A stretch of 6,492 nt of DNA from Escherichia coli (GCF_003334255.1 NZ_QOWU01000100.1), one strand, 5' to 3'; shown: positions 124 through 648, numbered from the stretch's first letter. Notes: a model not told the origin generated them from the letters alone. Program-made: numbers and translations.

Positions 124-648
124 TCACTGGTTGCCTTCGCTGTATTGGTGTTGCTCCAGTTTTGACTTTCTTCCTGTGTAAACCCGCTTTCCATTGATGG
201 TCTGGCAGTCTTCTTTGTTTGCCGGGGAAAACTTTCTTTTCTGTCGGTCGTACGTCCAGTAGCTTTTCCAGTTGTGCCATTCTGGCGGCTCGCATTCTGG
301 TAGTTCGTCAGCCAGCTTGTCCCACTCTCTGGCGTTAAACCACCATACGCCATCCGAATTTTCATCTTCAGGGTTTGAACGGGTCTTGTGTCCAGGCATC
401 TGATTTCGCTGAAGCGCCACGCGCAATGCAGCTTTTGTCAACCCGATATAGGCTGCCCCTTTTTCAAGTGAGCAAAGTCCGGCTACCGGGCCATCCAGTC
501 GCAAGGTTGCCCCTTTTTTGTAGGTGCGTTTTTTCTTTTCCTCTTGGTGTTCATCGTCGTTTGCCGCGCCAACGGATTCGGTGATGCTGTCGTTTTCCTG
601 AAGGGCTTGTGTGTCAGATAACTCTTTATCGGCAATTGACTTCCGCAT
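124..648 (-). CDS. Cox/Apl-position excisionase-like winged-helix DNA-binding protein, atypically long (174 aa), with an acidic N-terminal extension and a Trp-rich basic C-terminal tail
   Basis: Longest ORF in this region, with a strong RBS (AGAGGA, 6-nt spacer, ATG at 648..646). It is divergent from the repressor gene across a 104-bp intergenic region, as cox is in P2. The central segment (LRLDGPVAGLCSLEKGAAYIGLTKAALRVALQRN...GVWWFNAREWDKL) has the helix-turn-helix plus aromatic wing pattern of Cox/AlpA/excisionase-type proteins. Residues 1-45 are strongly acidic (DKELSDTQALQENDSITESVGAANDDEHQEE). Confidence 0.65.
   Translation of the reverse strand: MRKSIADKELSDTQALQENDSITESVGAANDDEHQEEKKKRTYKKGATLRLDGPVAGLCSLEKGAAYIGLTKAALRVALQRNQMPGHKTRSNPEDENSDGVWWFNAREWDKLADELPECEPPEWHNWKSYWTYDRQKRKFSPANKEDCQTINGKRVYTGRKSKLEQHQYSEGNQ

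Follow-up and report, generated by a model that had tools for sequence, protein, structure and literature searches.

Why should a P2-type phage switch use a Cox protein of 174 aa, and what would the additional residues do? In the textbook case of P2, one small protein represses at the switch, promotes excision and activates the satellite, and to our knowledge all mechanistic work on Cox has been done on the minimal 91-aa P2 form and on WPhi Cox. The Escherichia coli DNA analysed here, a stretch of 6,492 nucleotides referred to as the window, raises this question because its gene in the cox position is so much longer. We consider it probable that this gene encodes the Cox of a P2-type C/Cox/Int switch, of the larger 'group 2' subtype, with translated accessory tails that would tune DNA binding electrostatically. 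The locus is made up of three genes:

124..648, minus strand: cox-like gene of 174 codons plus stop, from the ORF list
753..1094, plus strand: P2-type immunity repressor C, 113 aa, with a helix-turn-helix, from P2 C homology and phrog_147
1164..2156, plus strand: P2-type tyrosine integrase, 330 aa, with 52% identity to P2 Int and the RefSeq name 'phage integrase'

The reading frame at 124-648 is open from ATG to stop, forms the first gene of the early (lytic) operon and has the same coordinates as the RefSeq CDS WP_016237837.1 ('hypothetical protein') in NZ_CP075697. It is divergent from the C gene, which is followed by int, and the cox-C spacer measures 104 bp. Compared with the map of P2, the frame occupies the cox position, so that the preliminary description of this DNA was right to place a 174-aa ORF there. 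C shares 35% identity with P2 C (E=2e-21) and also matches phrog_147; together with the similarity of the integrase to P2 Int, this identifies the locus as a P2-type C/Cox/Int switch. Positions 1-2400 of the window are 99.9% identical to the chromosome of E. coli STEC2018-607, in whose annotation the 174-aa CDS sits in a complete P2-like prophage with portal and gpA (replication endonuclease) genes, inserted immediately upstream of dmsABC. The synteny of C with int and cox is kept in all related loci, and the int-C-cox order is found again in Serratia, Salmonella and Yersinia, elsewhere on the chromosome.

The arrangement is not that of the CI/CII-type switch of phage 186, with its CI of ~190 aa, cII gene and Apl of ~80 aa carrying an N-terminal HTH. 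The window holds no CI, its ORF list contains no cII-like gene between repressor and cox, and Apl has no detectable sequence similarity to the protein encoded here. Apl and lambda Xis are nevertheless likened to it in a dual or architectural role (assigned to the window protein by homology), in phased direct repeats and in belonging to the winged-helix/HTH class; lambda Xis differs in not being a switch repressor.

Downstream of cox, the gene content varies among otherwise close prophages. In the window, the next gene encodes a 64-aa hypothetical protein (start at 72, minus strand), whereas UTI89 and 705R2 have one of 140 aa and LH10-b-1 one of 68 aa; these differences suggest a variable cargo slot directly after cox. 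The early operons of long-Cox prophages also encode small proteins with matches to the Pfam family 'Derepression' (PF25738), and some contain ParE-like toxin genes (locus L006, 9553-9807 and 10446-10673; L007, 9222-9494; L012, 6309-6540; L001, 9870-10082). The 'Derepression' proteins may bear on helper-satellite or anti-repressor interplay.

The family to which the 174-aa protein belongs is defined by its central part:

247..507, minus strand: Cox core, aa 48-134, comprising beta1, helix-turn-helix, wing, alpha3 and alpha4

The Pfam family PF10743 (Phage_Cox) matches aa 58-129 (E=2.1e-5), phrog_23196, a PHROGs profile of length 174, matches from end to end (E=3e-120), and a second PHROG family of 121 positions covers aa 29-134. 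No family in the NCBIfam library was matched by the 174-aa protein, and PADLOC returned no significant match (best, mad1, E=0.027). A profile built from 13 relatives without P2 Cox matches the P2 Cox structure 4LHF (E=1.1e-10), at an identity to P2 Cox of about 20-24% over the core. With 22 close relatives only, AlphaFold gave an unusable model (pLDDT 44); deepening the alignment to 51 diverse, family-wide members made the core model confident, with a pLDDT of 82-93 over aa 50-125. This predicted model keeps the P2 Cox element order beta1-alpha1-T-alpha2-beta2-L-beta3-alpha3-alpha4, with beta1, helices at 61-68 and 72-80, wing strands at 86-90 and 100-105, alpha3 at 106-119 and alpha4, which carries the PPEWHxW motif, at 126-131. 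The best Foldseek match of the model is likewise 4LHF (probability 1.0, TM-score normalised by target length 0.68), and the next-best matches in both searches are other excisionases (Pukovnik Xis, RdfS, Tn916 Xis). The core thus has the P2 Cox fold. A winged helix of Cox type is present as had been anticipated, with wider boundaries than the aa 45-115 first assigned to it: the Pfam match runs to aa 129 and the core of the model from ~50 to 131.

In alignments with the Cox proteins of P2 (91 aa), pro483 (123 aa) and Arsenophonus (126 aa), the tryptophan-rich stretch PPEWHNWKSYW (aa 121-131) falls opposite RPKEIRDGWLMW of P2 Cox, in the region of helix alpha4. P121, E123 and W127 match positions in the P2 segment 'RPKEIRDGW', making W127 the counterpart of P2 W81. 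W127 is invariant in the homologue alignments, W124 and W131 are conserved as well, and seven columns are invariant in the alignment that includes P2 Cox. [quoted passage not shown] As judged from these alignments, PPEWHNWKSYW is part of the conserved Cox core and not an added module. Since the Trp stretch belongs to the core, the C-terminal addition comprises ~40 aa (135-174) rather than the ~60-aa tail rich in Trp, Lys and Arg of the preliminary description, of which the basic part, aa 135-174, stands.

PPEWHxW (aa 121-127, DNA 268-288) also resembles the motif PPEWHGW of the mitochondrial complex I protein NDUFA12/B17.2. With E-values of only 0.2-6, we rejected a relation between the two, and the resemblance is most likely due to chance or convergence.

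The low identity to P2 Cox leaves room for a reading in which the Cox role has been lost, the protein being only a generic transcriptional regulator of early genes while excision directionality comes from another protein. Many database entries indeed say simply 'transcriptional regulator'. Against this stand the retention of both the fold and the oligomerisation motif, and the annotation of the window and related loci, which lists no other excisionase-like gene beside int. Including the evidence from the candidate DNA sites described below, we regard a loss of the Cox role as very improbable.

Whether the residues outside the core belong to the protein at all depends on where translation starts and ends. 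The elements concerned are:

655..660, minus strand: Shine-Dalgarno sequence AGAGGA (AAGAGGA), 6 nt upstream of the ATG at 648-646
508..648, minus strand: N-terminal addition, aa 1-47, without counterpart in P2 Cox
127..246, minus strand: C-terminal addition, aa 135-174, a basic tail of the form RQKRKF..KEDC..G[KR]RVY..R[KR]SKLEQ

We compared eight homologous loci, namely the window, phage vB_EcoM-705R2, E. coli UTI89, LH10-b-1, two from Salmonella, and one each from Yersinia enterocolitica and Serratia marcescens. The strong ribosome-binding site noted earlier at the first ATG holds up, AAGAGGATAACAA-ATG being kept in 8/8 loci from 4 genera (as CAGGAGGATAACAAA-ATG in the most divergent). All N-terminal length differences among the eight are in frame. 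Purifying selection acts on every part of the protein, with dN/dS values (Nei-Gojobori, mean of all pairs) of 0.42 for aa 1-47 and 0.10 for the core, and of 0.17-0.22 for aa 135-174 (all-pair mean 0.22).

These observations weigh against the idea that the long ORF is an artefact, arising either from an internal start that would give a product of ~90-125 aa or from a C-terminal fusion or read-through into a small downstream gene. An internal start could be sought at TTG codon 49, the sole plausible candidate, which is preceded by AAAAAGGGG; three of the eight loci have CTG, CTA or TTA in its place, and the next ATG, codon 84, lies within the HTH. A fusion is suggested by the small ORF that P2 (orf78) and pro483 (ORF4) have right after cox, but the tail shows no similarity to Orf78, ORF4 or any frame of the P2, pro483 and Arsenophonus loci, which makes a recent fusion unlikely, and the long form is conserved across genera. 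We therefore rejected both the internal start and the fusion or read-through, and consider an artefact of either kind extremely improbable. The conserved ribosome-binding site and ATG, the in-frame indels, the purifying selection and the lack of a conserved internal start together indicate that the extensions are translated from the first ATG, so that the earlier view of the extension as real is upheld, the internally started ~90-aa product that it had weighed falls away, and a full 174-aa product is well supported by the sequence comparisons.

At the nucleotide level, codons 1-12 (613-648, minus strand) stand out by a dS of 0.41, against ~1.3 in the rest of the gene, and contain a 22-nt block, CAGATAACTCTTTATCGGCAAT, that is nearly invariant in the eight loci. 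This combination points to a constraint acting on the DNA or mRNA, for example a site upstream of Pc or an effect on translation initiation. One candidate for it, a hairpin sequestering the Shine-Dalgarno sequence by pairing of GGATAAC with GTTATCT in codons 10-12, was rejected: the fold of the window has z=+0.5, and its Shine-Dalgarno variant GGATAGC disrupts the pairing.

A long Cox of this kind is far from rare. A search of 5.8 billion proteins yielded 65 relatives, mostly of 166-192 aa, from E. coli, Shigella, Salmonella, Yersinia and Serratia, the database names of the long ones being 'Cox family DNA-binding protein' (from PGAP, in many cases) or 'transcriptional regulator'. A profile search found 310 relatives of 118-192 aa, all with PF10743, and the lengths of 144 representatives with a complete core cluster at ~120, ~137 and 175-192 aa; P2 Cox, at 91 aa, marks the shortest length in the family. 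The family is narrow overall, with 23 representatives in a 50%-identity library of 1.84 billion proteins. Among 5426 complete E. coli genomes, the long form is present in 357 (6.6%), including UTI89 and the ST131 strain JJ1886, the P2-type short gene in about 810 and the 123-aa pro483-type gene in about 413. The label 'atypically long' thus applies only in comparison with the 91 aa of P2 Cox. The long form is one of three common length classes, and the 166-192-aa proteins form a subfamily that is conserved over five or more enterobacterial genera rather than an atypical or strain-specific fusion.

The closest point of reference is UTI89, whose homologue of 173 aa lies in a prophage at the same dmsA-proximal position, with about 81% DNA identity; the window differs from it in its cox allele and in its operator/C region. 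The Cox proteins of pro483, P24E6b and Yersinia vB_YpM (about 119-123 aa; phrog_1831) have the core in common with the window protein, including APxEWHxWK. Those of pro483 type further share the gene position and an acidic N-terminal stretch of ~30 aa, but are without the 40-aa basic tail, of which ~10 basic residues are kept, and have a partner C of 99 aa. P2 Cox (91 aa; PDB 4LHF; PF10743), in contrast, is without the 47 N-terminal and the ~40 basic C-terminal residues.

The size difference has a precedent in the literature. Nilsson et al. 2011 reported a larger size for the Cox proteins of 'group 2' than for those of group 1, with only six conserved residues in common between the two, and their data set includes the UTI89 prophage PhiECO5, whose C repressor belongs to immunity class IX (PMC3448106). 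The protein of the window shows the features of group 2, with 174 aa vs 91 aa, few residues in common with P2 Cox and a C-type partner repressor. Its place in a common, catalogued subgroup of large Cox proteins makes it an ordinary member of its lineage. The preliminary description had made the case against itself depend on such proteins being both ordinary and well characterised; the first holds, and as to the second, functional work on a long Cox did not turn up in our literature search, which yielded only the 2011 remark on the size of group 2 (PMC3448106).

Head and tail each have an organisation of their own. The N-terminal addition opens with MxxxIA[DE][KE]xLSD, continues as an acidic linker of variable length (aa 4-37) and ends in a basic patch, KKKRTYKK (aa 38-45). 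There are 11 D/E vs 3 K/R in aa 1-37 and 11 D/E vs 1 K/R in aa 4-37, and in both AlphaFold models aa 1-40 have a pLDDT below 50, so that the head is predicted to be disordered. An acidic, disordered N-terminus of ~45 aa is therefore confirmed in aa 1-37, but not in aa 38-45, which are basic. The Cox proteins of pro483 and Arsenophonus keep ~30 aa of this N-terminal region.

The C-terminal addition is basic, with 10 K/R vs 4 D/E over aa 135-174. Among the long forms, K139, F140, K145, C148, G153, R155, R160 and L164 reach a conservation of 90% or more, and the R[KR]SKLE motif is kept even in the divergent long forms P0067 and P0069. The tail model, of medium confidence (pLDDT 63-68), shows a hairpin (148-157) and a helix (163-172). 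Searches with aa 135-174 found no match in Pfam, PDB sequences or fold searches beyond the Cox core, and the 50%-identity library of 1.84 billion proteins contains no tail-only protein. The two additions vary together among the 144 family representatives, a query-biased set analysed without correction for phylogeny: the length of the head correlates with that of the tail (Spearman rho 0.67), and the more acidic the head, the more basic the tail tends to be (rho -0.54).

If the protein acts as P2 Cox does, its sites would be expected at the switch and at the attachment region. The spacer between cox and C contains the following elements:

659..707, plus strand: candidate Cox operator over the presumed Pc, with YTTGY boxes every 10 bp, proposed from the phasing in relatives
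709..732, both strands: perfect 11-bp inverted repeat AAAGATACTCG/CGAGTATCTTT, 100% complementary, from a repeat search
752-747 (-35, TTGAGT) and 729-724 (-10, GATACT), minus strand: weak putative Pe, read by eye

In 705R2, UTI89, Serratia and one Salmonella locus, four boxes stand at +25, +35, +45 and +55 from the cox ATG, a run matched by 0/5000 dinucleotide shuffles. Of the boxes in the window, those at 673-677 and 693-697 are intact and those at 683 and 703 degenerate, and the window's own run is not significant, being matched by 3460/5000 shuffles. The candidate box YTTGY differs from the P2 cox-box, TTAAA(G/C)NC(A/C). Promoters in the spacer were placed by eye, both for Pe and for Pc, as the promoter scanner reported no sigma-70 promoter there; the hexamers of Pe fall below the scanner's threshold, and Pe overlaps the inverted repeat at 709..732.

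This inverted repeat is probably the operator of the C repressor, on the sequence comparisons that follow. Its sequence differs between loci with different C alleles, the variants elsewhere being GATAACC/GGTTATC, TTCACCA/TGGTGAA and ATGTCGAA/TTCGACAT, and a half-site matching it at 753-763 overlaps the C start codon. From the allele-specific palindromes and this half-site, inverted repeats would seem to be the target of the partner C, unlike the direct repeats bound by P2 C. Across the eight loci, the spacer is a mosaic whose cox-proximal half is constant across immunity types and whose C-proximal half varies; the immunity module, operator plus C, seems to be swapped as a cassette beside the constant half.

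A second set of candidate sites lies on the other side of the integrase gene:

2160..2177, plus strand: two direct repeats TAATTTGC, 10 bp apart, right after the int stop, from a repeat search

The repeats contain YTTGY boxes at 2163-2167 and 2173-2177 and are conserved in phase in 7/8 loci. A phased run of two, as in the att arm of the window, is matched by 88/5000 shuffles, and runs of three in Serratia and Salmonella by 2-5/5000. The P2 annotation puts the Cox site in the same position as these repeats, with the att core on one side and the int 3' end on the other, and the repeats are hence candidate Cox boxes of the att arm. Given that the phasing in the window spacer is not significant and that the att pair is matched by 88/5000 shuffles, we take the YTTGY sites as a lead and not as a demonstration of Cox binding. 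For the reading in which the Cox role is lost, the partly degenerate boxes of the window spacer count in favour, and the presence of phased boxes at the att arm as well as at the switch counts against.

The att arm has further conserved features. A 13-bp inverted repeat, 2173-2185 with 2221-2233, flanks the conserved A/T-rich sequence TTGAAAAATAAGTAAAT. All eight loci keep the repeat, and at 4 pairs the changes are compensatory. It might form a stem in RNA downstream of int or be bound as DNA by a protein, and its A/T-rich centre might be an IHF site. At the int 3' end (2133-2152), two copies of the direct repeat TGTCCAT stand 11 bp apart (GTGTCCATAAACTGTCCAT); they are invariant across loci and placed like P2 Int P' arm-type sites that overlap the end of int. 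The similarity of prophages located at different sites stops at ~2240-2265, at a terminator-like GC stem with a T-run (CCTGCGGGCGCTTTTTTT). The att core and the junction of phage and host DNA are probably located here, directly upstream of the dmsA promoter region.

By homology with P2 Cox, the winged-helix core would bind short direct repeats one helical turn apart, and polymerisation through alpha3-alpha4, with the Trp motif PPEWHxW, would lead to wrapping of the DNA. At the switch, such a complex would shut off Pc, the promoter of C and int, and in the att arm next to int it would bias the integrase towards excision. In our preferred reading, the tails would add electrostatic tuning of DNA binding and of filament growth. 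The basic tail and the KKKR patch may make non-specific contacts with the DNA backbone along the wrapped DNA, and the acidic head may compete with DNA for basic surfaces, within one molecule or between neighbouring protomers. Such competition could result in auto-inhibition or in a sharper concentration threshold of the switch.

Composition may not be the whole story, as the conservation of MxxxIADKELSD looks more like that of a short docking motif, or of a constraint on the DNA, than like pure electrostatics. The tails might accordingly be modules for docking partners: the C-terminal tail could recruit Int, or the N-terminal motif could bind C, a host protease or adaptor, or a satellite-phage factor, by which Cox would gain an anti-repressor, turnover-control or satellite-related function. 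The extra functions put forward for the extensions in the preliminary description, DNA mimicry and anti-repressor or anti-satellite activity, are conjectural. Lambda Xis, whose functional C-terminal tail contacts Int, offers a parallel. That tail is unstructured (PMC3936717). The first 12 residues of the window protein and the tail motifs KEDC, G[KR]RVY and R[KR]SKLEQ are conserved in sequence and not merely in composition, and the tail has a dN/dS of 0.17-0.22. Moreover, every long-Cox locus examined pairs the protein with a C of 113-115 aa and an Int of 329-331 aa, in contrast to the 99-aa C of P2 and pro483. However, the integrase of the window, 56% identical to that of pro483, whose Cox has no tail, and 52% identical to P2 Int, is as near to the one as to the other, which leaves no obvious co-variation of Int with the tail, and the PADLOC and NCBIfam searches gave docking no significant match in its support. 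We regard partner docking as unlikely to be the main role of the tails. The broader proposal that the tails of large Cox proteins confer some regulatory property beyond P2 Cox, be it auto-inhibited threshold polymerisation or the docking of Int, C, a protease or a satellite factor, is possible, if somewhat doubtful. Electrostatic tuning of a Cox that would otherwise work in the P2 manner is the reading that we prefer.

The large size of group 2 Cox proteins was already published in 2011, in a paper that contains no analysis of the extra residues (PMC3448106). The present analysis adds corrected boundaries for the tails and evidence that selection acts on them. Charged tails are present on a large share of the Cox proteins found in nature. 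If the conserved tails of the large forms do confer a property of their own, the switch of this widespread prophage group, found in E. coli of ST131 and UTI89 type, would work differently from the P2 paradigm, and if the tails modulate filaments or recruit partners, they would refine the view of how lysogeny and excision are controlled in prophages that are common in pathogenic E. coli and Salmonella.
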